Shown here piece by piece: positions 1-8,899 of a DNA stretch of 37,123 bases. The stretch is from IMG/VR virus record IMGVR_UViG_2713896795_000003, positions 1 through 37,123 of that record. One strand, written 5' to 3'. A model generated the notes under the pieces. The model worked only from the letters and a program-made list of their open reading frames with translations, was not told the origin of the DNA and ran no database searches. Each line of letters begins with the position of its first letter. Within the stretch, counting starts at the first letter, position 1. Position numbers and translations under genes: made by a program. The stretch is from a virus (lineage: Duplodnaviria > Heunggongvirae > Uroviricota > Caudoviricetes).

Positions 1-483
1 TTATTTGATAAGAAGTGAAGGTTTCCCAACCTTGAGTTGAGCGCCTGGGATATTTATTCCTGCTTTTAGTTGGTGCTTGATTGCCAACTTGTCGGCTTTA
101 ATTGTCGTTTCAAACTCAACGTATTCAGGAGGAAGGGCGCTTGAGTCGATGATTTCTACAGTTTCTGACGGTTTGCGGATTGTTACCTGGTGAATACCTG
201 CTCGAATCTTTTTCTTGCCAACCATTTCAAGCGATGACGCTATATATGATTTGATGCTGTCAATCTTATTTTGAATTACTGTGGCTCGCTCATTCAGTGA
301 CTTTGCCTCTTCCTTGAGGCGTTCGGCATAACCAGATTCATTTTTAATGACGGAAAGAAGTTGCTCTATTTTATCGGTAAATTCTCCTTCCATGCCTTCT
401 ATTGTGTCAGCAATCATCTCTGGTTCTAAATCTGAATCCATCAATTTTGCGTATTCATTGGCAATTTCATACAGTTTGCTCAC
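1..483 (-). CDS. Hypothetical recombination-associated protein, possibly Gp157-family
   Basis: Complete minus-strand ORF with TAA at 1-3; GGAGG lies 6 nt before GTG at 483 (the ORF-track TTG at 489 abuts the SD); overlaps recT stop; ~160 aa and position next to recT fit Gp157-type proteins, but family not verified. Confidence 0.5.
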   Translation of the reverse strand: MSKLYEIANEYAKLMDSDLEPEMIADTIEGMEGEFTDKIEQLLSVIKNESGYAERLKEEAKSLNERATVIQNKIDSIKSYIASSLEMVGKKKIRAGIHQVTIRKPSETVEIIDSSALPPEYVEFETTIKADKLAIKHQLKAGINIPGAQLKVGKPSLLIK

Positions 484-1369
484 TGGCAACCTCCAGTTTC
501 GCTTTGCATTCTGCGTAAATGGCTTGTACGTTCTGCTGCAATTTCATTCCAGATGTCAGGCGATATGCTTCTGCAAAATACCTCTTCAAATCATCCATGT
601 TTTCAGCCTGAGCCATTTCATCACAAAGAAGTTGTGCTTTTTCCATTATTTCCTGCTGGCGTTTCCGTTCATCTTCGCGGATATCTTCCTCTGATTTGTG
701 CGGCATAACCGGTTCCTGATGCATACCCTCATCTTCGTTAAGCAGGTGAATGGCATTATCCAGTCGCTGGGCTTTAGGCCAGTATTTGCTGGCGCGTTTA
801 ACTATGGTTTTACGCGCCATCTCTTCCCAGAATGTCTTCCACGGTCCATTCTTTGCCTTGCTCGTTGCTTCCACAGCTTTAATTTCTGCCAGACTCATTT
901 CTTCAGTGAGGTAGTCACCATCTGCTGTTTTAACCGTACAATAACCACCAACAATAGAGCCTCGCTCACCAAATGCGTTGTATTTGTGGGTTGGTGCTGA
1001 ATCAAGGCCGTTTGATTCATAGGTGTCGTTTGAGTACACCAGTTTGCATTGCCCCCACTTAATTGATCCTGTCGACTGTGCAAGGTGAAGTAATCCCATA
1101 TAGCTGATATCAAGGCAAACCATGCCGTCGCGCGGAACTAGATAAGCAAGTTTGCTGGCCGGGTTTAAGGTGATGCCGATCGCCGCAACATTGATGATGG
1201 CGTTCTGTGCGCTGGTTGGATTTGCCAGTGCCGTTTTAGCCAGGTAATCGTTTTTCTGGAAATACTGAATTGCAAACTGGCTTTCCTTAGCCCATGTCAC
1301 CGTCTGTTCAGTCAATGCTCCGCAGAATAACTGCTCCTGCTGTTTAACGAATTCAACGATATTGCTCAT
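467..1369 (-). CDS. recT: RecT/Bet-type single-strand annealing recombinase
   Basis: 300-aa ORF, ATG with GGAGAAG SD; translation recognisable as RecT family; ATGA start/stop overlap with upstream ORF. Confidence 0.8.
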   Translation of the reverse strand: MSNIVEFVKQQEQLFCGALTEQTVTWAKESQFAIQYFQKNDYLAKTALANPTSAQNAIINVAAIGITLNPASKLAYLVPRDGMVCLDISYMGLLHLAQSTGSIKWGQCKLVYSNDTYESNGLDSAPTHKYNAFGERGSIVGGYCTVKTADGDYLTEEMSLAEIKAVEATSKAKNGPWKTFWEEMARKTIVKRASKYWPKAQRLDNAIHLLNEDEGMHQEPVMPHKSEEDIREDERKRQQEIMEKAQLLCDEMAQAENMDDLKRYFAEAYRLTSGMKLQQNVQAIYAECKAKLEVASEQTV

Positions 1370-1677
1370 GCTGCTTCTCCAAAAATGTGTCTGCGCTTGA
1401 ATATTGCGAAGGCATATTCAGCCTTAACTCTTTCGGTTATTGCATCCCAGAACCATTCAGCGGCTTTTTCCTGATAGTTACAGTCATCATCTTCCAGCCA
1501 GTCGATAGCGTCCTTAGTGTGTTCATCTGGTTTATATGAGCGAAGCATTTCGCTTATTGGGTCGCAACGTTTGCAGAGGCGATCAACTTCACTGTTGATT
1601 CGTTCGTAATCTTCATCAGTAAAACTTGCGATTATTTGCGATATTTCACGCTTATCATTCAGAGTCAGAATCATCAT
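1366..1677 (-). CDS. Hypothetical early-left protein (103 aa)
   Basis: ATGATG start with AGGAG SD; stop overlaps recT start (ATGA). Confidence 0.6.
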   Translation of the reverse strand: MMILTLNDKREISQIIASFTDEDYERINSEVDRLCKRCDPISEMLRSYKPDEHTKDAIDWLEDDDCNYQEKAAEWFWDAITERVKAEYAFAIFKRRHIFGEAA

Positions 1678-1762
1678 CTTTCTCCTGTTCTTTGTGCTGA
1701 TTGAGCATTTTGTTCATCTGACGAATGAATTCTTCGTCTGACCAGTTATCTGTAAAACTCAT
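1655..1762 (-). CDS. Small hypothetical ORF (35 aa, acidic C-terminus)
   Basis: Hand-translated; ATG overlaps stop of the cIII-like ORF (ATGA); weak SD; below ORF-track size cutoff. Confidence 0.3.
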   Translation of the reverse strand: MSFTDNWSDEEFIRQMNKMLNQHKEQEKDDDSDSE

Positions 1763-1929
1763 GGACGGCCTTGTTGTTTCAAAATATCCCAAAGCTTTTC
1801 GAGCAAACTTTTCATTCTTGGTTGTTTAAAGTCTGCTCCGGTTAGAATATTTTTTCGTGAATGCTGTACCGATAAAATCGGGTTGAAAGGGCGAACCGAT
1901 GCCGCCCCTGCAATAGCGAACTGTTGCAT
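1759..1929 (-). CDS. cIII: CIII-like small protein (56 aa), putative FtsH inhibitor
   Basis: Hand-translated MQQFAIAGAA...LLEKLWDILKQQGRP resembles lambda CIII (MQYAIAGWPVA...WKRLIDILNQPGVP) from memory; AAGGAG SD 6 nt before ATG. Confidence 0.5.
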   Translation of the reverse strand: MQQFAIAGAASVRPFNPILSVQHSRKNILTGADFKQPRMKSLLEKLWDILKQQGRP

Positions 1930-2012
1930 AGGATGCTCCTTCTGTTTGATTGCATAACGAAAACGCCTCGAGTGAAGCGTTATTGGTATGCGGTAAAGCC
2001 GCGCTTGGCGGC

Positions 2013-2432
2013 TTATTTGAAGATTTCTATGAAATCAAGAACTGATGATATTTCGTGGTTGAACGATTTTCTTTTGTATCTTTCTATCGCAGAATCCACC
2101 TGGTGTTTATAGTCATCGTCGTTTGAGTATTTAACGAAGCATTCTATTGTCTCAGGCGTTACAGCTATGAGGCTCCACCAACCTTCATCAGATTGATATT
2201 CAAACCCCATGCTTTCAAGCCATCCAGCATATTTCCCTCCAGCATCTTGCCAGTGTGTTTTTTCTGCAAGGAAGCTGTTAACCGTCATATGTGCATCAAG
2301 GCATTTATCCAACTGTTTACCATTAAGTAGCCATGCGCTGACAGTTGCACATCCCAAATCAACTGATTGAGTAGAGATATTGAATTGGTCGTAATTATCT
2401 GGATTAACCAGAATATCTGTAATTTCCATCAT
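2013..2432 (-). CDS. Hypothetical protein (139 aa)
   Basis: GGAGGA directly before ATGATG at 2432/2429; the upstream part of the ORF-track frame runs through a terminator hairpin and is unlikely to be coding. Confidence 0.6.
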   Translation of the reverse strand: MMEITDILVNPDNYDQFNISTQSVDLGCATVSAWLLNGKQLDKCLDAHMTVNSFLAEKTHWQDAGGKYAGWLESMGFEYQSDEGWWSLIAVTPETIECFVKYSNDDDYKHQVDSAIERYKRKSFNHEISSVLDFIEIFK

Positions 2433-2441
2433 TCCTCCATC

Positions 2442-2468
2442 AAAAAAAATGCCCTCACACTGGAGGGC
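2442..2468 (-). terminator. Intrinsic terminator inside the leftward early operon (tL-like)
   Basis: Minus-strand hairpin GCCCTCcagtgtGAGGGC followed by ATTTTTTTT, immediately upstream of the 139-aa gene SD. Confidence 0.6.
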
Positions 2469-2572
2469 AAAGAAGATTTCCAATAATCAGAACAAGTCGG
2501 CTCCTGTTTAGTTACGAGCGACATTGCTCCGTGTATTCACTCGTTGGAATGAATACACAGTGCTTATTCGTA

Positions 2573-3043
2573 CTAATAAAACACCCAATTTTCTGTTTCT
2601 TGGTTGTGTCCAAAGTTATATTCAATATCTGGTGTTGATGTATCAATATTCTTCATCCCATCAACAAGAGTTGATACAACAGCCAAATCTTGTTTGATTC
2701 TCATCAAATGGTATTTCTTCCGGCGCAATAAACTTTCAATGGCAAGTTTCTTCGTCGGGAATGCAAAAGATCTTTCTGCATTTTTTGCTACTTTCTTAAT
2801 TGCATATCTATTTCTCCTTTGTTTCCATTCCTGTAACCACAGATTTGGTGCTGGTTTAAAATTAACAATCCAATGCGCAGGAACCAACCATGCATAATGC
2901 TCTGTCTGATGAAAAGCTATATATTGAAGTGCGAATATTTTGATTCCATCTTCTTCAACTGTCGCTTGGAATCTCCAGAAAACAGGCATTCCCTCATGTT
3001 CAGTTTCTGATTCAGGAAAAGGTACGCTCCATGATTTTGTCAT
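2573..3043 (-). CDS. Hypothetical protein (156 aa)
   Basis: ATG at 3043 with GAGGTG SD; no recognisable family. Confidence 0.6.
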   Translation of the reverse strand: MTKSWSVPFPESETEHEGMPVFWRFQATVEEDGIKIFALQYIAFHQTEHYAWLVPAHWIVNFKPAPNLWLQEWKQRRNRYAIKKVAKNAERSFAFPTKKLAIESLLRRKKYHLMRIKQDLAVVSTLVDGMKNIDTSTPDIEYNFGHNQETENWVFY

Positions 3044-3106
3044 ATCTCACCTCAAATAATTCAGTGCAGTGTTTATTCTGTTGTTTATGCCAAAAATAAA
3101 GGACGA

Positions 3107-3730
3107 TTATGCGACCTCGGAAGGAAGTCCAATCATCTTATTCAAATCTTCTACCCGTAAAGCAGGAAGTGCTGTACTTGCTTTATCTGCTTCTTTTGGT
3201 AGCAACTCTTTGCTTTCAGGCCAAACTTCAATAAGTCGCTTAACTGTTGTGACTGAGTTCAAAGCAGCCCATACATTTGATTCGATATCCTTTTTCTTGG
3301 CTTCAAGTTTTTGTTGCAATGCGCAGATTTCATCAAACCTTTTTGTTATTTCGTGTTCTGCGTCAAACATGCATTTATCTTTTTCTGGGGTGGGGAGCAA
3401 TATATCTTCACCGTTGCCGTCTTTTCCGTATGAATGCCAGCCAACCCTTCTTCCAGATACAGTCAGATAAATCGAAGTAGAACGAACATCGCATGAGTAA
3501 AATGAACATCCCATCTTCTCAAGTTCTTCACTTATAGCTGCTAACTTGGATGATAACCGATCCACTTCCTCAGTTTTCTTTTTACCGCCAAACGCAATAA
3601 CTCTGGCGTCAAGTGCAAGCTGGTTCTTTAACTTTGTTACTTCTTCAAGTTCAGTGAAAACCCCAGACTTAATTAAAGCGTTACGAGCGATTTCCTCTTT
3701 CATTCTCGTAGTTAAGCGGATTGATGACAT
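3107..3730 (-). CDS. Hypothetical protein (207 aa)
   Basis: ATG at 3730 (MSSIRLTT...) with GAGGAA SD just after N stop; the longer ORF-track frame overlaps N 3-prime end; no recognisable family. Confidence 0.6.
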   Translation of the reverse strand: MSSIRLTTRMKEEIARNALIKSGVFTELEEVTKLKNQLALDARVIAFGGKKKTEEVDRLSSKLAAISEELEKMGCSFYSCDVRSTSIYLTVSGRRVGWHSYGKDGNGEDILLPTPEKDKCMFDAEHEITKRFDEICALQQKLEAKKKDIESNVWAALNSVTTVKRLIEVWPESKELLPKEADKASTALPALRVEDLNKMIGLPSEVA

Positions 3731-3741
3731 ATTAATTCCTC

Positions 3742-4041
3742 TCAAATAAGTGGTTTGCTGCCTAATTTCATTTTCTGGCGACCAACACAAGTCACCCCCA
3801 TTTCACTGCGTGGCTTGCGGTAGTAAATACGGTTCTGTTTACGCTCGACTTCTTCTGCCTTCTTGCAGCGAAGGCTTCCGAGTGATGCTGCTTTATCTGC
3901 TCTGACGCAACCAGAGAGCTTTAGCGCAATTTTTCGCGCCAGTCGCTGCTCTTGCATTGCCTGTTCACGTTGAGCCTGTCTGCGTGCTCTGCGGCGATTT
4001 CTGGCGTTATCGTCAGCCAGATATGTAATGACTACTGTCAT
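3742..4041 (-). CDS. N: Antitermination protein N-like
   Basis: Arginine-rich motif NARNRRRARRQAQ near N-terminus; C-terminus ...VTCVGRQKMKLGSKPLI resembles lambda N ...ITCSGRQKIKGKSIPLI; GGAGG SD; sits downstream of nutL on the pL transcript. Confidence 0.75.
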   Translation of the reverse strand: MTVVITYLADDNARNRRRARRQAQREQAMQEQRLARKIALKLSGCVRADKAASLGSLRCKKAEEVERKQNRIYYRKPRSEMGVTCVGRQKMKLGSKPLI

Positions 4042-4354
4042 GTTGACCTCCGATGAAACAACTTTGGAAATTTTTTTATTACAAAGTGGTTTCCTTCCCC
4101 GCCAATTAGACGGGGATGGAAGAGCATTTATGAGCCTTCATGGACTCTGCTCGATCAGTTCTATTTAATTAATCTCTCAACTGAATGTAAGTATTCACAT
4201 AAATCCTCCTACCTCTTGTGCAGCTTTCTTGAATATGGTGGCGGCTGCATAACGCCTATGGAATTGACTTTGGCGGTGACGCGCCGGGTGCTTATCTTCC
4301 GGTTGCCGTCGTGCAGCTGCACTTCACGTCACCCCAAAGCCAACTACTCTTTGG

Positions 4355-4397
4355 TTCCCGCATTTCGGCGGGACAATCCCATCAATGTTAAAGAGCC
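4355..4397 (-). promoter_or_regulatory. nutL (boxA GCTCTTTAACA + boxB hairpin)
   Basis: Minus-strand reading gives GGCTCTTTAACA, 12-nt spacer, then hairpin TCCCGC-CGAAAT-GCGGGA; exact inverted copy of the element downstream of cro. Confidence 0.6.
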
Positions 4398-4436
4398 TGC
4401 CAATCTGTTCCGTTTGGCTTCCAGCGTCCTGCTGAT

Positions 4437-4510
4437 GGCTTAAATTTAAGATCTCTTTAATTAATGGTCAAGAGTATTTTTGAAGAAAACTTAAATTTTC
4501 TTTCGTAACT
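4437..4510. promoter_or_regulatory. pL promoter with OL operators
   Basis: Minus-strand -35 TTGACC (4466-4471) and -10 TTAAAT (4444-4449) with 16-nt spacer; 18-bp ATTTAAG-N4-CTTTAAT operator at 4444-4461 and weaker TTAAG-type repeats to 4510. Confidence 0.45.
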
Positions 4511-4533
4511 TAAGTTTGGCTTTGATTTTTAAA

Positions 4534-4562
4534 GGAAATAAAAAAAGGGGCGAATGCCCCTT
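4534..4562 (-). terminator. Intrinsic terminator downstream of repressor gene
   Basis: Minus-strand hairpin GGGGCattcGCCCC followed by TTTTTTTATTT, starting at the cI stop codon. Confidence 0.7.
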
Positions 4563-5211
4563 ATGGAAGGTTTGCTAGTTTTGCATCGACAACTACGCCG
4601 ATGATTTTGCAGTTTCCGTTGATCTCGATCATCGGATATTGTGGGTTAAGTGGTTTTAGAAACTTCCTGCCTGCATCAATAACTAACTTTTTGAAAGTTG
4701 CCTCGTTTTCTCCTTCGAGCTTTGCAACTACCAGTTTCCCGTTACGCGGCTCTACTTCAGGATCGACGAGTATTATCATTCCTTCAGGGATACTGAGACC
4801 GGCTGGAGCCGTCATTGAGTCTCCCTTCACGTCCAACCAAAACGAATCTTCTGAACAGTCTACGGTTGTATCGTACCAGTTATCTATTGCACGCTTATGA
4901 TATGGTTCTACAGCTTCCATCCAGCATCCTGCGCTCACCCAGCTAATCAGAGGGTATGACCCTCTTGGATCATGCCTACTGTGATAGGCAATGTTTGAAA
5001 GACTTTCCTCTCCTTTCATCAGATAGTCAGGGGAACACTTCAACGCATTAGCCAGGGCGAGAAGATTCTCTCCATTTGGCTCTGTCTCAGAGCGTTCCCA
5101 CTGAGATATGGCAACATTAGACACGCCGACCATCTTTCCAAGTGCGGCCTGCCTGATCTTGAGTTCTTTTCTCCGAGCGCGAATGCGCTCTCCCATCAAT
5201 TGAGTTTTCAT
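4561..5211 (-). CDS. c2: CI-type repressor (P22 c2-like; HTH + S24 LexA-like autocleavage domain)
   Basis: 216 aa; N-terminal HTH; C-terminal FWLDVKGDSMTAPAGL...ATFKKL...PLNPQYPMIEINGNCKIIGVV matches lambda CI / P22 C2 from memory; leaderless ATG abutting OR3. Confidence 0.9.
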   Translation of the reverse strand: MKTQLMGERIRARRKELKIRQAALGKMVGVSNVAISQWERSETEPNGENLLALANALKCSPDYLMKGEESLSNIAYHSRHDPRGSYPLISWVSAGCWMEAVEPYHKRAIDNWYDTTVDCSEDSFWLDVKGDSMTAPAGLSIPEGMIILVDPEVEPRNGKLVVAKLEGENEATFKKLVIDAGRKFLKPLNPQYPMIEINGNCKIIGVVVDAKLANLP

Positions 5212-5277
5212 AGTTAAGACATCTTAAATAAACTTGACTTAAGATTCCTTTAGTGGATAATTTAAGTGTTCTTTAAT
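5212..5277. promoter_or_regulatory. OR operators (three 18-bp sites) with pR and pRM
   Basis: Sites AGTTAAGACATCTTAAAT (5212-5229), ACTTAAGATTCCTTTAGT (5237-5254), ATTTAAGTGTTCTTTAAT (5260-5277); pR -35 TTGACT 5234-5239 and -10 ATAATT 5257-5262. Confidence 0.6.
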
Positions 5278-5291
5278 TTCGGAGCGAGTCT

Positions 5292-5477
5292 ATGTACAAG
5301 AAAGATGTTATCGACCACTTCGGAACCCAGCGTGCTGTAGCTAAAGCGTTAGGCATTAGCGACGCAGCAGTCTCTCAGTGGAAGGAAGTCATCCCAGAGA
5401 AAGACGCCTATCGACTGGAAGTCGTTACAGCTGGCGCCCTGAAGTATCAAGAAAGCGCTTACCGCAAAGCGGCATAA
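5292..5477 (+). CDS. cro: Cro repressor (P22-type, 61 aa)
   Basis: MYKKDVIDHFGTQRAVAKALGISDAAVSQWKE... recognised as P22-like Cro from memory; GGAG SD. Confidence 0.85.
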   Translation: MYKKDVIDHFGTQRAVAKALGISDAAVSQWKEVIPEKDAYRLEVVTAGALKYQESAYRKAA

Positions 5478-5483
5478 GCAAAT

Positions 5484-5529
5484 TGCTCTTTAACAGTCAT
5501 GGTCCTCATTCCCGCCGAAATGCGGGAAT
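5484..5529 (+). promoter_or_regulatory. nutR (boxA TGCTCTTTAACA + boxB hairpin)
   Basis: boxA 5484-5495; hairpin ATTCCCGC-cgaaat-GCGGGAAT 5508-5529, 12-nt spacing. Confidence 0.6.
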
Positions 5530-5534
5530 ACAAC

Positions 5535-5570
5535 GCGCATAAGTTGATGCGCATAACTTCTTATTTGTTA
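5535..5570 (+). terminator. Candidate tR1-like terminator
   Basis: Hairpin GCGCAT-aagttg-ATGCGC followed by interrupted T-rich tract; weak. Confidence 0.25.
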
Positions 5571-5610
5571 AGGAAATACTTACATATGGTTCGTGCAAAC
5601 AAACGCAACG
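5565..5610 (-). promoter_or_regulatory. pRE-like CII-activated promoter (TTGC-N6-TTGC)
   Basis: Minus strand TTGCGTTTGTTTGC (plus 5595-5608) overlapping cII start, as in lambda pRE. Confidence 0.45.
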
Positions 5611-5879
5611 AGGCTCTAAGAATCGAGAGTGCGTTGCTTAACAAAATCGCAATGCTTGGAACTGAGAAGACAGCGGAAGCTGTGGGAGTTGATAAGTCGC
5701 AGATCAGCAGGTGGAAGAGGGATTGGATTCCAAAGTTCTCAATGCTGCTTGCTGTTCTTGAATGGGGCGTCGTCGACGACGATATGGCTCGATTGGCACG
5801 ACAAGTTGCTTCGATTCTCACCAATAAAAAACGCCCGGCGGCAACCGAGCGTTCTGAACAAATCCAGATGGAATTCTGA
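5586..5879 (+). CDS. cII: CII transcriptional activator (lambda type, 97 aa)
   Basis: [47 protein letters not shown]... matches lambda CII from memory; the ORF-track start at 5499 is an extension through nutR. Confidence 0.9.
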
Positions 5880-5900
5880 GGTCATTACTGGATCAATCCA
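5824..5900 (-). ncRNA. oop: oop-like antisense RNA (placed by analogy with lambda)
   Basis: cII 3-prime end and the following ~30 bp resemble the lambda oop/pO region; minus-strand GC-rich hairpin followed by U-run near 5825-5850; coordinates approximate. Confidence 0.4.
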
Positions 5901-5911
5901 CAGGAGTCATT

Positions 5912-6058
5912 ATGACAAAACAACTCAGTCCTTACCAGGACAAAATTCACAAACACATACTACGTGATCGCTTCCTGTCCAGCTTCAAGCAGCCTGGTCG
6001 ATTCCGGGCTGAGTTGGAAAAAGTGAAGCTGATGCAGAAGGAGAAAGGTCATGAGTAA
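5912..6058 (+). CDS. Small hypothetical protein (48 aa)
   Basis: Hand-translated [21 protein letters not shown]...; AGGAG SD 7 nt before ATG; stop overlaps O-like gene start. Confidence 0.45.
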
Positions 6059-6911
6059 TCTTGCAACCGTAACACATTTAAGGCCTTCACAACGGCCTGT
6101 GGAGCGTCGTGTGGCAGAAGTTGAAGATGGTTATACCCGTCTTGCAAATGCCCTGTATGAAGAGCTTATCGGCGCAGATTTAACGAAAAATCAGAGCAAG
6201 GTTGCCCACGCCATATGCCGTAAAACATACGGCTACGGTAAAAAGATGGATCGCATTTCTGATAGTCAGTTAGCTCAAATTACCAGGCTGCCAAGACAGA
6301 AGGTAAACAAGGCCAAGAATGAGCTTATCGCGATGAAGGTTATCCTTCGCGAAGGCCAGCAAATCGGGCCTAACAAGAACATCGAAGAATGGCAAATCGA
6401 AGGGTGTCACTACTCTGGTGATAATGTCACTGCATTGGTGACAAAAAGTGTCACCAAAACGGTGACAGCGCTGTCACCAAAACAGGGACACACAAAAGAA
6501 ACTATTACAAAAGAAAAAAGAAATAATAAAAACACTATGTCCGAAAGTGTTCGGACGGAGTGTGAAAAATCATCTGACCGTCACGAAGAAACCGACAAGG
6601 CATTCGAGGAAATATTCTGGTGTGCAGGCATGCGGAAAGCCGGGAAGAAAAACGCGGCTTCGGCATTCAGAACACAGTTCAGGGAATGGCGTAAAACTAC
6701 CAGGGGTACGGCAAGCGAGTTTGCCACGATGCTGGCAGAAGACATCGCATGCAGGAATGGTAAGCAGTTCGGATTCGACAGGTTGTTACCATCGAGCTAC
6801 CTGAACGGTCAGCGCTGGAACGACGAGAAGCCAGAAACTATTCAACCACAATCCAAACCATCATCCGCAATCACCGTATCGAAAACTGGCTACGTGTTTT
6901 TCGACAGGTGA
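6051..6911 (+). CDS. Replication initiator, lambda O-like N-terminal domain
   Basis: N-terminal [36 protein letters not shown]...[13 protein letters not shown]...[11 protein letters not shown] resembles lambda O; iterons lie inside the gene; C-terminal half unlike lambda O. Confidence 0.8.
6405..6535. repeat. Replication origin: four TGTCAC(C)-N5/6-GGTGACA iterons plus AT-rich tract
   Basis: Repeats at 6405-6490 (e.g. TGTCACCAAAACGGTGACA) followed by ACAAAAGAAACTATTACAAAAGAAAAAAGAAATAATAAAAACAC, inside the O-like gene as in ori-lambda. Confidence 0.7.
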
Positions 6912-7018
6912 ACCATGAAATCAAAAATCAAATCGCTACTGGTCGCTGGTTATAACCACGGCTGGTTAAGTATTTCGTTTGTCGATTTCTGGTTTAAAAA
7001 TCTCAATCTGAGGGAATC

Positions 7019-8899
7019 ATGACGCCAAGTGAACTTAGCGACCTGCTTTGGGCGCAGGTTGACAGGGTGGCTCCGCACCTGTTGCCAAACGGCAAGAAAG
7101 AGGGGCATGAGTGGGTTGCCGGTAACGTCAACGGTGACAAGGGAAACAGCCTTAAGGTCAACCTTAGCGGCAAGAAAAAATGGGCTGATTTCGCTGAGGG
7201 AGACGGCGGTGACATGCTTGATTTGTGGATGGCATGTCGTGGAATTAACCTGCATCAGGCTATGCAGGAAGCGAAAGCCTTTCTCGGAATCAAGGATGAC
7301 GATCACCATTTCGATGCCAAACGTGAGAAGAAATTCTCCAGACCTGACCGCAAGAAAATCGCCCGCTACGTTACCAGAACAGAATCCCATCTTGAGTACC
7401 TGCAATCGCGTGGCATATCGCCAGAAGTCGTAAAGCGCTACGAGGTTGTCAGCGGCAAGGTGTGGAATGGAGAACGAGAACTTGATGCACTGGTGCTTCC
7501 GTACAAACGCGATGGTGAGTTGTTGCAGGTCAAGCGAATCAGCACTGAGCGCCCGGACGGGAAGAAAGTCATTATGGCAGAAGGTGATTGCGAACCTTGT
7601 CTGTTCGGATGGCAGGCTCTGGACGCTGGCGTGAGGGCGGTTGTACTTTGCGAAGGCGAAATTGATTGTATGAGCTATGCGCAATACGGCATCTCGGCGT
7701 TATCCGTGCCGTTTGGTGGCGGGAAAGGCGCTAAGCAACAGTGGATTGAGTTTGAGTATCACAACCTCGACAGGTTTGAGGAAATATTCATCTCGATGGA
7801 CGTTGATGATGTTGGTCGTGAAGCCGCAAGGGAAATCGCAAGCCGACTCGGTGAACATCGTTGCCGTCTTGTTACTCTGCCGTACAAAGACATCAACGAA
7901 TGCCTGATGAACGGTGTTACCGAGGATGAAATCTGGCAGTACATCGGCACGGCATCCTACTTCGATCCTGAAGAACTCTACAGCGCGCGAGAGTTTTACC
8001 AGGACACTATCAACGCTTTCTACGGCAAGCAGCAGTATCTGTTTAATCCACCGTGGGAATCTCTGGCAGATAAATTCCAGTTCCGTGAGGCCGAGTTGAC
8101 GCTGGTCAATGGTGTGAACGGTCACGGAAAAACGGAGGTTGTCGGGCATATGGCGCTTGAGGCAATGCGTCAGGGTGTGAAGACGTGCATCGCGTCACTT
8201 GAGCTGAAGCCAGGCATTCTCCTTAAGCGACTTACCCGTCAGGCGACGTGCTGCAAGATGCCGCCAGTGCTGGAAATTGACTCTGCATTTAAATTTTATG
8301 ACGAAAGACTTTGGGTGTTTGGCCTGACCGGAACGGCGAAAGCCGACAGGCTGATCGAAATATTCGACTACGCTCGCCGCCGATACGGCATCCAGTTATT
8401 CATCATCGACAGCCTGATGAAATGTGGCATAGGCGACGATGACTATAACGGGCAGAAGGCGTTTGTTGACTCGATTTGCGATTTCAAAAACAAAACAAAC
8501 TCCCACGTCATTCTCGTTACTCACTCGCGAAAAGGTGACAGCGAAGAAAAACCAACCGGGAAAATGGACGTAAAAGGCTCTGGAGCGATAACAGACCTGA
8601 CAGACAACCTTTTCATCATCTGGCGTAACAAGGCTCGCGAGAGAGCGTTACAGAGAGTTCAGAGTGGTGAAAAGATGTCAGAGAAGGACGAACAGCTACT
8701 GGCATCTCCGGCATCTGTTTTGATGCTTGAAAAGCAACGTAACGGCGAAGGTTGGGAAGGTGGTGTCCCGTTGTTCCTTGACGAGCAATCGCACCAGTTC
8801 CTGCAACTTGAATCAGGATCGCCATATAGCTACATCGCCAATATGCCGAAATCGGAATATGACGAGGCGTGGCGACAGGAAAACGTGACGGAGTATTAA
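7019..8899 (+). CDS. Bifunctional DNA primase/helicase (Toprim + DnaB-like ATPase)
   Basis: 626 aa; Toprim-like VVLCEGEIDCMSYAQYG and DVDDVGREAA; Walker A GVNGHGKT; Walker B LFIIDSL. Confidence 0.8.
   Translation: MTPSELSDLLWAQVDRVAPHLLPNGKKEGHEWVAGNVNGDKGNSLKVNLSGKKKWADFAEGDGGDMLDLWMACRGINLHQAMQEAKAFLGIKDDDHHFDAKREKKFSRPDRKKIARYVTRTESHLEYLQSRGISPEVVKRYEVVSGKVWNGERELDALVLPYKRDGELLQVKRISTERPDGKKVIMAEGDCEPCLFGWQALDAGVRAVVLCEGEIDCMSYAQYGISALSVPFGGGKGAKQQWIEFEYHNLDRFEEIFISMDVDDVGREAAREIASRLGEHRCRLVTLPYKDINECLMNGVTEDEIWQYIGTASYFDPEELYSAREFYQDTINAFYGKQQYLFNPPWESLADKFQFREAELTLVNGVNGHGKTEVVGHMALEAMRQGVKTCIASLELKPGILLKRLTRQATCCKMPPVLEIDSAFKFYDERLWVFGLTGTAKADRLIEIFDYARRRYGIQLFIIDSLMKCGIGDDDYNGQKAFVDSICDFKNKTNSHVILVTHSRKGDSEEKPTGKMDVKGSGAITDLTDNLFIIWRNKARERALQRVQSGEKMSEKDEQLLASPASVLMLEKQRNGEGWEGGVPLFLDEQSHQFLQLESGSPYSYIANMPKSEYDEAWRQENVTEY

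Follow-up and report, generated by a model that had tools for sequence, protein, structure and literature searches.

Independently exchanged accessory genes around a homologue of the lambda PreS/tL2a locus in the early-left operon of a P22-like Escherichia coli phage or prophage

What are the three genes that separate the N-type antiterminator gene from the cIII-like gene in the viral record IMGVR_UViG_2713896795_000003 (Caudoviricetes), and do they act together? We analyzed the whole of this 37,123-nt stretch (hereafter, the window), which represents a P22-like (CUS-3/Kapi1/E212-like) phage or prophage of Escherichia coli. Its early-left operon lies on the minus strand in the order repressor, pL-like promoter, nutL-like site, N, gene A, gene B, gene C and cIII, and beyond cIII there is a kil-region open reading frame (ORF), RecT and a gp157-family gene. 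An earlier reading made without database searches (the sequence-only reading) had described three ORFs with good Shine-Dalgarno (SD) and start contexts between N and cIII, and had treated them as a unit; we confirmed the ORFs and their SD sites, all on the minus strand. Breakpoints and co-occurrence counts identify them instead as independent single-gene cassettes, and we found no evidence of a three-gene system. The features of the interval are as follows.

3107–3730, minus strand: gene A, solo Nmad5-family protein, 207 amino acids (aa) (PF18757 and phrog_1965)
2573–3043, minus strand: gene B, HK97 gp45/933W ST933Wp19 family, 156 aa, basic (isoelectric point, pI, 9.1) (phrog_1636)
2531–2558, minus strand: perfect 12-bp hairpin GUGUAUUCAUUC-CAAC-GAGUGAAUACAC, 5′ of the PreS homologue (RNA fold and alignment)
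2442–2529, minus strand: homologue of the lambda small RNA (sRNA) PreS/LPR1, 88 nt (identity to lambda; putative 5′ end, placed from the published size of ~88 nt)
2442–2469, minus strand: intrinsic terminator, lambda tL2a (terminator scan; identity to lambda)
2013–2429, minus strand: gene C, PHROG 8967 protein, 138 aa, acidic (pI 4.5), in the ea10 slot (phrog_8967, E 6.1e-87)
1954–2012, minus strand: two conserved hairpins between gene C and cIII (terminator scan)

The three genes are genuine and evolve under purifying selection. The ratio of nonsynonymous to synonymous differences (pN/pS) is 0.05–0.28 among close homologues. Among distant homologues pS is saturated (0.75–0.94) with pN at only 0.23–0.44, and the protein alignments retain many invariant columns and unbroken frames. 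The spacers upstream of genes A, B and C measure 11, 63 and ~10 nt; gene A (SD GAGAGGAA) starts 11 nt past the N stop codon, and the SD of gene B is GAGGTGAG. For gene C, ATG codons at 2432 and 2429 and a TTG at 2483 are candidate starts. We chose 2429 because the homologues are 138 aa long and begin with MEITDI and because the GGAGGA SD is better spaced, and dismissed the TTG because its frame would cross the terminator. The lengths of 207 and 156 aa first given for A and B stand, and the 139 aa given for C receives a trivial correction. The G+C content of the three genes is 36–40%, compared with 46.7% for the window, which fits acquired cargo.

The sequence-only reading had also placed an intrinsic terminator between the second and third genes. 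The terminator is real, but this description is incomplete. It consists of TGCCCTCCAGTGTGAGGGCA (2469 to 2450) followed by T8 (2449 to 2442), that is, a 7-bp G+C-rich stem with five G-C pairs, a 6-nt loop and U8, and a putative terminator is annotated at the equivalent site of HK97. It ends a conserved block of ~120 nt (2442–2564, minus strand) that matches the ral-ea10 spacer of lambda almost base for base: from GCACTGTGTATTC to GAGGGC, ~115 nt are invariant except for one or two bases at the T-run. The 140-nt spacer at 2575–2436 folds as three hairpins (z = −4.5). Part of the block recurs in ~2233 of 5426 complete E. coli genomes, and Rfam 15 has no family that matches it. The lambda ral-ea10 region is where the Hfq-dependent sRNA PreS/LPR1 was mapped; it is ~88 nt long, is processed to ~68 nt and has the early-left terminator tL2a as its 3′ end (Silverman et al., bioRxiv 10.1101/2024.10.31.621285). 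The same study found PreS in ~2,500 genomes and reported that it is made lytically and not lysogenically, raises dnaN translation and supports phage replication. Judged by this identity to lambda, the inter-gene terminator is the 3′ end of a PreS/LPR1 locus and not a plain terminator. The 12-bp hairpin immediately upstream is invariant in lambda, HK97, mEp235 and 933W, and could be a processing site that sets the 5′ end of PreS or a protein-binding site.

BLAST comparisons with HK97, mEp235, 933W and prophages revealed sharp breakpoints. HK97 is colinear with window positions 3059–2445 and then 1991–1936, and mEp235 with 3834–3062, then 2564–2445 and then 1991–1936. These breakpoints delimit gene B as an insertion at 3061–2565 and gene C as an insertion at 2444–1992. 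Between the same flanks lambda has ral/orf28/sieB and ea10, mEp235 has Nun and Nmad5, HK97 has gp45 alone and 933W has p19 and ea10, which bears out the earlier suggestion that this is the variable accessory interval of the lambdoid pL operon. Lambda and the window share the N and cIII flanks, the ~120-nt PreS/tL2a block, the distal hairpins and the position relative to pL and nutL. The lambda order N-(sieB)-orf28-ral-PreS/tL2a-ea10-cIII corresponds to N-Nmad5-gp45-type-PreS/tL2a-PHROG8967-cIII in the window, whereas all three window proteins are unrelated to Ral, Orf28, SieB and Ea10 and there is no opposite-strand sieB-like gene.

The distal hairpins consist of GCCGCCAAGCGCGGC followed by TTT (2012–1995) and of AACGCTTCACTCGAGGCGTT followed by TTTCGTT (1981–1954). 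Lambda and 933W have both of them 3′ of ea10, and HK97 and mEp235 share the second; they may correspond to the further tL2 sites of lambda. The 3′ edge of gene C coincides with these hairpins, and the gene is thus an exact replacement for ea10. At the other cassette, a GCACTG hexamer is present at both edges of gene B (~3061–3066 and ~2559–2564), and in lambda and mEp235 the flanks of gene B are contiguous via a single GCACTG. This pattern in the sequences suggests recombination at a short common sequence.

The co-occurrence counts point the same way. Gene A was found in 209 of the 5426 E. coli genomes, gene B in 593 (~11%, Stx [Shiga toxin] phages included) and gene C in 35. The A-B junction occurs in 48 genomes, which is 23% of the gene A carriers. 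Since this resembles the frequency of gene B among carriers of the PreS block (593 of ~2233), A and B are not linked. All three genes occur together in two genomes only, both of Shiga toxin-producing E. coli (STEC). In lambdoid loci with gene C from IMG/VR, the same terminator lies 13–40 nt before the ATG in 18 of 23 cases and the upstream partner varies (Nmad5 in four, gene B in none). At two IMG/VR loci with gene C (L014 and L030), the tL2a-like terminator is not directly before the gene but 300–420 nt upstream, a spacing which suggests room for one more small cassette between tL2a and gene C.

A single functional module made of all three genes is thus largely refuted by the counts, and we consider it very improbable. 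The genes are adjacent and co-oriented in the window and in the two STEC genomes, and Vibrio phage vB_Vp_PvVp04_M (locus L044, 2989–5068) has a distant gene B relative (hhalign 97.7%) and an Nmad5 protein (37% identity) in one early operon, two genes apart and just upstream of the replication initiator, the one case outside Escherichia that hints at an association of A with B. However, each gene occurs alone in many phages, the triple is very rare, the A-B junction is near the background frequency of B, the IMG/VR loci with gene C never include B, and the conserved sRNA and terminator part B from C.

How might such cassettes be expressed? The following features of the operon bear on this.

4561–5211, minus strand: C2/cI-type repressor gene, at the start of the operon
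4443–4471, minus strand: pL-like sigma-70 promoter (TTGACC, 17-nt spacer, TAAATT), directly 3′ of the repressor gene (promoter scan; putative function)
4356–4396, minus strand: candidate nutL-like site (read from the sequence)
3742–4041, minus strand: N-type antiterminator gene, 99 aa, pI 11 (phrog_271 'anti-termination protein N-like', E 4.8e-37)
1759–1929, minus strand: cIII-like gene, 56 aa, the downstream limit of the variable interval (phrog_550 'CIII', E 1e-22)

The nutL-like site combines a boxA-like GCTCTTTAAC (4396–4387) with a boxB-like hairpin, TCCCGC-CGAAAT-GCGGGA (4373–4356), and mEp235 has an annotated boxA at the equivalent position. The N gene has a weak Pfam N_peptide match, and prophage copies 97–100% identical to it carry an N annotation. 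A crude scan of the N-A, A-B and tL2a-C spacers, a moderately strong negative, found no sigma-70-like site. The pL-like promoter, the nutL-like site, N and tL2a are all on the minus strand, upstream of gene C, and only ~10 nt without a promoter separate tL2a from it. By analogy with lambda, gene C would therefore depend on N antitermination, as the sequence-only reading had proposed for the distal gene; the identification of the terminator as tL2a strengthens that proposal.

The reading that we favor, with modest confidence, is that this is an accessory segment of the pL operon made of three swappable cassettes around PreS/tL2a, gated by N and encoding proteins for lytic host manipulation or counter-defence. 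The cassettes would recombine independently at short conserved junctions, with the PreS locus and tL2a as the fixed landmark; genes A and B would fill the ral-side slot and gene C would take the place of ea10. Having no promoters of their own, the three genes would be transcribed from pL upon loss of the repressor. Transcripts not modified by N would end at tL2a and give PreS, and RNA polymerase modified by N via nutL would pass tL2a into gene C, cIII, kil and the RecT recombination genes. From the pL/nut/N layout and lambda biology we infer that these are delayed-early lytic genes and not lysogenic-conversion genes. Each protein would act alone, probably as a non-enzymatic binder, and would serve in lytic growth to manipulate the host or to overcome one of its defences. 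For this role of the three genes, taken by itself, our confidence is low to moderate.

Searches for known families left the function of all three proteins unassigned. The sequence-only reading had allowed that they might prove to be known early proteins such as Ral, Kil or Ea-type proteins, and at E ≤ 1 Pfam gave no match to Ral, Kil, Ea10/DUF2528 or SieB for any of them. Its statement that no features could be assigned does not hold for gene A, which has a full-length PF18757 match, nor for B and C, which fall in the existing PHROGs 1636 and 8967, although the PHROGs assigned to the three genes are labelled 'unknown function'. NCBIfam returned nothing for the three proteins. PADLOC-DB 2.0 returned none for A or C and one chance-level match for B (Cas1_II, E 0.022). 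PDB sequence searches, run with profiles as well as with the individual proteins, yielded no match under E 0.02, and a literature search on the gene A and B accessions, HK97 gp45 and PhiR12/mEp235 found nothing functional.

These results bear on a first alternative, that one or more of the genes is a prophage defence or superinfection exclusion gene expressed in the lysogen. SieB, Rex and BstA protect the host against other phages from the prophage state. Lambda sieB lies in the homologous N-ral interval, some E. coli prophages have a 'superinfection exclusion protein' right after the PreS/tL2a block, the low G+C content is typical of acquired cargo, and gene B was found in temperate phages and prophages only. 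Set against this, no promoter-like site precedes any of the genes, all of which are co-oriented with pL behind N; PADLOC gave no credible match for the three proteins or for 51 relatives of gene C; homologues of A and C occur in strictly virulent phages, where a lysogenic defence would be senseless; and we saw no transmembrane segments and no nuclease or NTPase motifs. On balance we regard a lysogenic defence role as unlikely.

A related comparison is with the morons of HK97 and HK022, which the three genes resemble in being single extra genes of low G+C content with patchy presence and sharp edges. The moron as Juhala and co-workers described it in 2000 reportedly comes with a promoter and a terminator of its own and is active in the prophage. 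In contrast, our promoter scan found none for A, B and C, which appear to ride on the pL transcript.

Gene A matches PF18757 with an E-value of 2.7e-71 (240.3 bits, cut-off 27), residues 4–203 covering model positions 1–206 of 206. The mEp235_037 protein is 96.6% identical to it, some Stx phages also carry the gene, and in E. coli genomes RefSeq names it 'Nmad5 family putative nucleotide modification protein'. It shares the full-length domain and C-terminal motif with mEp235_037, YuA gp15 and the Dhillonvirus proteins, and is shorter than the last, which carry an insertion. The motif (NSVTTVKRLIEVWPE...LPAL.V.DLNKMIGLP) is its most conserved feature. In the form NSV.T.K.LI..WPE ... LN..G.P it is common to distant Nmad5 members, and T162, L166, W170, P171, E172, L196, N197, G201 and P203 are invariant across E. 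coli, Vibrio, Pseudomonas and Dhillonvirus members. The AlphaFold2 (AF2) model from 40 homologues (mean predicted local distance difference test score, pLDDT, 86; predicted template modeling score, pTM, 0.71) predicts three long helices (8–72), a beta-hairpin (86–100), a long helix (127–158) and a small C-terminal helical region that bears the most conserved motif. Compared with PDB folds, the model matched nothing beyond coiled coils. Gene A is thus confidently modeled as a bundle of helices that does not resemble an enzyme fold.

The family name derives from settings like that of YuA gp15, which sits between gp14, a 5-hydroxymethyldeoxyuridine (5-hmdU) DNA kinase helical-domain protein, and gp17, a dUMP hydroxymethylase. 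It raises the possibility that gene A acts in chemical modification of DNA bases, with B and C accessory to the pathway. The YuA locus and the RefSeq name favor this, and among its defence candidates the DefensePredictor paper includes a 'nucleotide modification associated domain' next to a 5-hmdU kinase. However, tblastn of YuA gp13, gp14, gp17 and gp18 against the whole window gave no match with E below 0.3, and among the YuA proteins gp15 was the sole match, on gene A. Nmad5 also occurs without modification enzymes nearby in Klebsiella, Providencia, Vibrio, Dhillonvirus and mEp235, the confidently modeled helical bundle lacks an enzyme-like fold, and A, B and C assort independently. We consider a base modification pathway here quite improbable, and conclude with moderate to low confidence that gene A takes no part in base hypermodification in this phage. 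Since the lambdoid copies stand alone and the model resembles a helical adaptor, the name 'nucleotide modification protein' is probably misleading for them.

Nmad5 homologues are also present in the virulent Dhillonvirus, where a K-to-E change allows escape from the Tmn defence, the one phenotype reported for the family, and the gene was toxic to clone (PMC11846954). If the residue numbering for phage SMA8 follows that of the 254-aa Oekolampad homologue, the escape lysine would align with K164/R165 in TVKRLIEVWPE, within the conserved motif of gene A.

Gene B matches phrog_1636 over its whole length (E 7.2e-111, 1–156 of 156) and is 98.1% identical to HK97 gp45 and 98.7% to the 933W protein, with ~98% identity also to those of H-19B and phi24B. 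In HK97, 933W and H-19B the gene occupies the same position, between N and PreS/tL2a; the window differs in having an Nmad5 gene between N and gene B. Its relatives are spread over Enterobacterales, with a distant one in the Vibrio phage mentioned above. The AF2 model from 21 homologues is poor (pLDDT 55.6), with a moderately confident long C-terminal helix; gene B thus looks like a small basic protein with a long amphipathic helix. Pfam searches with all 21 relatives gave sub-threshold matches only (zf-H2C2, Put_DNA-bind_N and PvuRts1I-like_N), on which we did not rely; they lean toward nucleic acid binding, and gene B possibly binds nucleic acid. We also considered it as an Acb1-like 2H-phosphoesterase, given an HxT motif and two conserved histidines, and rejected this because the second motif is missing, the C-terminal half is predicted to be helical and there is no PDB sequence match.

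In Salmonella phage vB_SpuS_NX263 (locus L045, 2501–4901), a homologue 64% identical to gene B is the first gene of an operon whose other products include a phage-encoded 'DNA polymerase III beta subunit', a MarR-type regulator and a 'DNA binding protein'. PreS, the immediate neighbor of gene B in HK97, in 933W and in the window, increases host DnaN; this may be a coincidence or a clamp-related theme.

Such neighborhoods make a role of A and/or B as accessory factors of replication or recombination, as partners of the clamp, of single-stranded DNA-binding protein (SSB) or of a recombinase, a serious rival. Nmad5 often opens an early operon or adjoins replication genes, as in Klebsiella and Providencia prophages and Vibrio phages. 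It directly precedes the initiator gene O in Vibrio phages Athena1 and PvVp04, and a Providencia prophage has it as the first gene of an operon that also encodes DUF2800, an Enc34-type ssDNA-binding protein and DNA polymerase A. The NX263 operon and the adjacency to PreS in HK97 and 933W argue likewise for gene B, and in the window the three genes precede RecT and gp157. On the other side, this is guilt by association from a handful of loci, and proximity is weak evidence because early operons of temperate phages always hold replication and recombination genes. Moreover, A and B are dispensable to the extent that most lambdoid phages lack them, and we saw no recognized clamp-binding or SSB-tail motif. 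We give this role a rather low probability, somewhat above that of a lysogenic defence.

Gene C has a different distribution. Its only relatives in the phage collection are in rV5-like Vequintavirinae (64–66% identity over the full 138 aa), and no lambdoid phage in that collection matched it. An exhaustive profile search recovered 61 distant relatives of 125–150 aa with the common motif DWGGxYAxWL...GWWS...A.xP.N...F. All 51 relatives that were scanned fall in phrog_8967, with no consistent PADLOC match and no Pfam assignment among them. The protein is rich in tryptophan. We tried gene C as a homologue of the protein whose slot it occupies, and rejected this: a profile comparison with lambda Ea10, a DUF2528 protein, gave an hhalign probability of 1.1%. 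The rV5-like proteins (e.g., FV3 ORF194) share the DWGG...GWWS core, but their carriers are large virulent myoviruses, in which the gene lies within a run of small early genes, whereas here it is cargo of a temperate P22-like phage that would be gated by tL2a. In several lambdoid lineages gene C has the final accessory position before cIII or the recombination genes.

Several loci add detail on gene C. Lambdoid-like prophages with homologues of 60–62% identity (L039, 2913–3581; L040, 2747–3340) have other cargo in the same accessory interval, namely a pentapeptide-repeat protein (a possible DNA mimic), a DUF551 protein and an HNH-AP2 homing-endonuclease-like gene. In phage FV3 (locus L007, 4195–4653) a Macro-domain protein (PF01661, E 1e-5) is encoded two genes 3′ of the gene C homologue; Macro domains are often tied to ADP-ribose signaling or counter-defence. 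Sixteen 'Campylobacter phage' records of 135–143 kb carry an rV5-type gene C at the identity seen in E. coli rV5-like phages (matches include H115, H126, H134, H137, H142 and H143; MG0656xx), and look mislabelled as to host. A tblastn search of plasmids with gene C gave one record, the 137.5-kb E. coli 'plasmid' H221 (CP057073.1), which is evidently an rV5-like phage genome.

The reading of the three genes as N-gated cargo for lytic growth is also supported by gene C homologues among the small early genes of virulent rV5-like phages, by Nmad5 homologues in virulent Dhillonvirus and at the head of early operons in prophages of Klebsiella and Providencia and in Vibrio phages, and by the Tmn escape mutant and cloning toxicity of the Dhillonvirus gene. 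Several points weigh against it. The N dependence and the efficiency of tL2a are extrapolated from lambda, and the promoter scan is a crude consensus search that could miss a weak or non-sigma-70 promoter. A true defence gene of lambda, sieB, lies in the same interval, which makes a prophage-protective role possible, chiefly for gene B, and the gene B model (pLDDT 55.6) is unusable for a fold search. None of the three proteins has structural or sequence similarity to known anti-defence proteins, and the frequent position of Nmad5 beside replication and recombination genes fits a role in DNA metabolism at least as well as it fits counter-defence. In Dhillonvirus, deletion of nmad5 left Tmn sensitivity unchanged (PMC11846954), and the defence link is thus indirect.

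As to what the individual proteins do, our preferred reading of gene C, an inhibitor or mimic of a host protein, is a guess. A bolder proposal, which we put forward as speculative and on the whole doubtful, is that gene C (PHROG 8967) would be the founding member of a family of small acidic, tryptophan-rich proteins directed against a host defence or DNA-metabolism factor and traded between virulent rV5-like and lambdoid phages, and that solo Nmad5 would act as an effector without enzymatic activity, with Tmn sensing its conserved C-terminal motif.

Nothing in the interval lies outside the known kinds of lambdoid genome organization, and the three genes are 'known unknowns'; the value of the analysis lies in annotation and hypotheses and not in a new kind of system. 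In thousands of E. coli prophages, what resembles an ordinary terminator would be the PreS locus, a fixed pivot for the exchange of accessory genes, and this gives a simple way to define where cargo slots begin and end in lambdoid and Stx phages. It is rare for a gene to be shared between virulent rV5-like and temperate phages, as gene C is, and screens for counter-defence could reasonably include it. Should one of the three prove to be an anti-defence factor, this would matter for the host range of therapeutic phages and for Stx-phage biology.

Outside the variable interval, a scan of positions 1–8000 with Rfam gave no family other than one chance match, to the Enterococcus sRNA RefA1 (4470–4564, minus strand). 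The match is weak (25 bits, gathering score 94) and almost certainly fortuitous, as it overlaps a strong terminator right after the repressor gene (AAGGGGCATTCGCCCCTT followed by a T-run).

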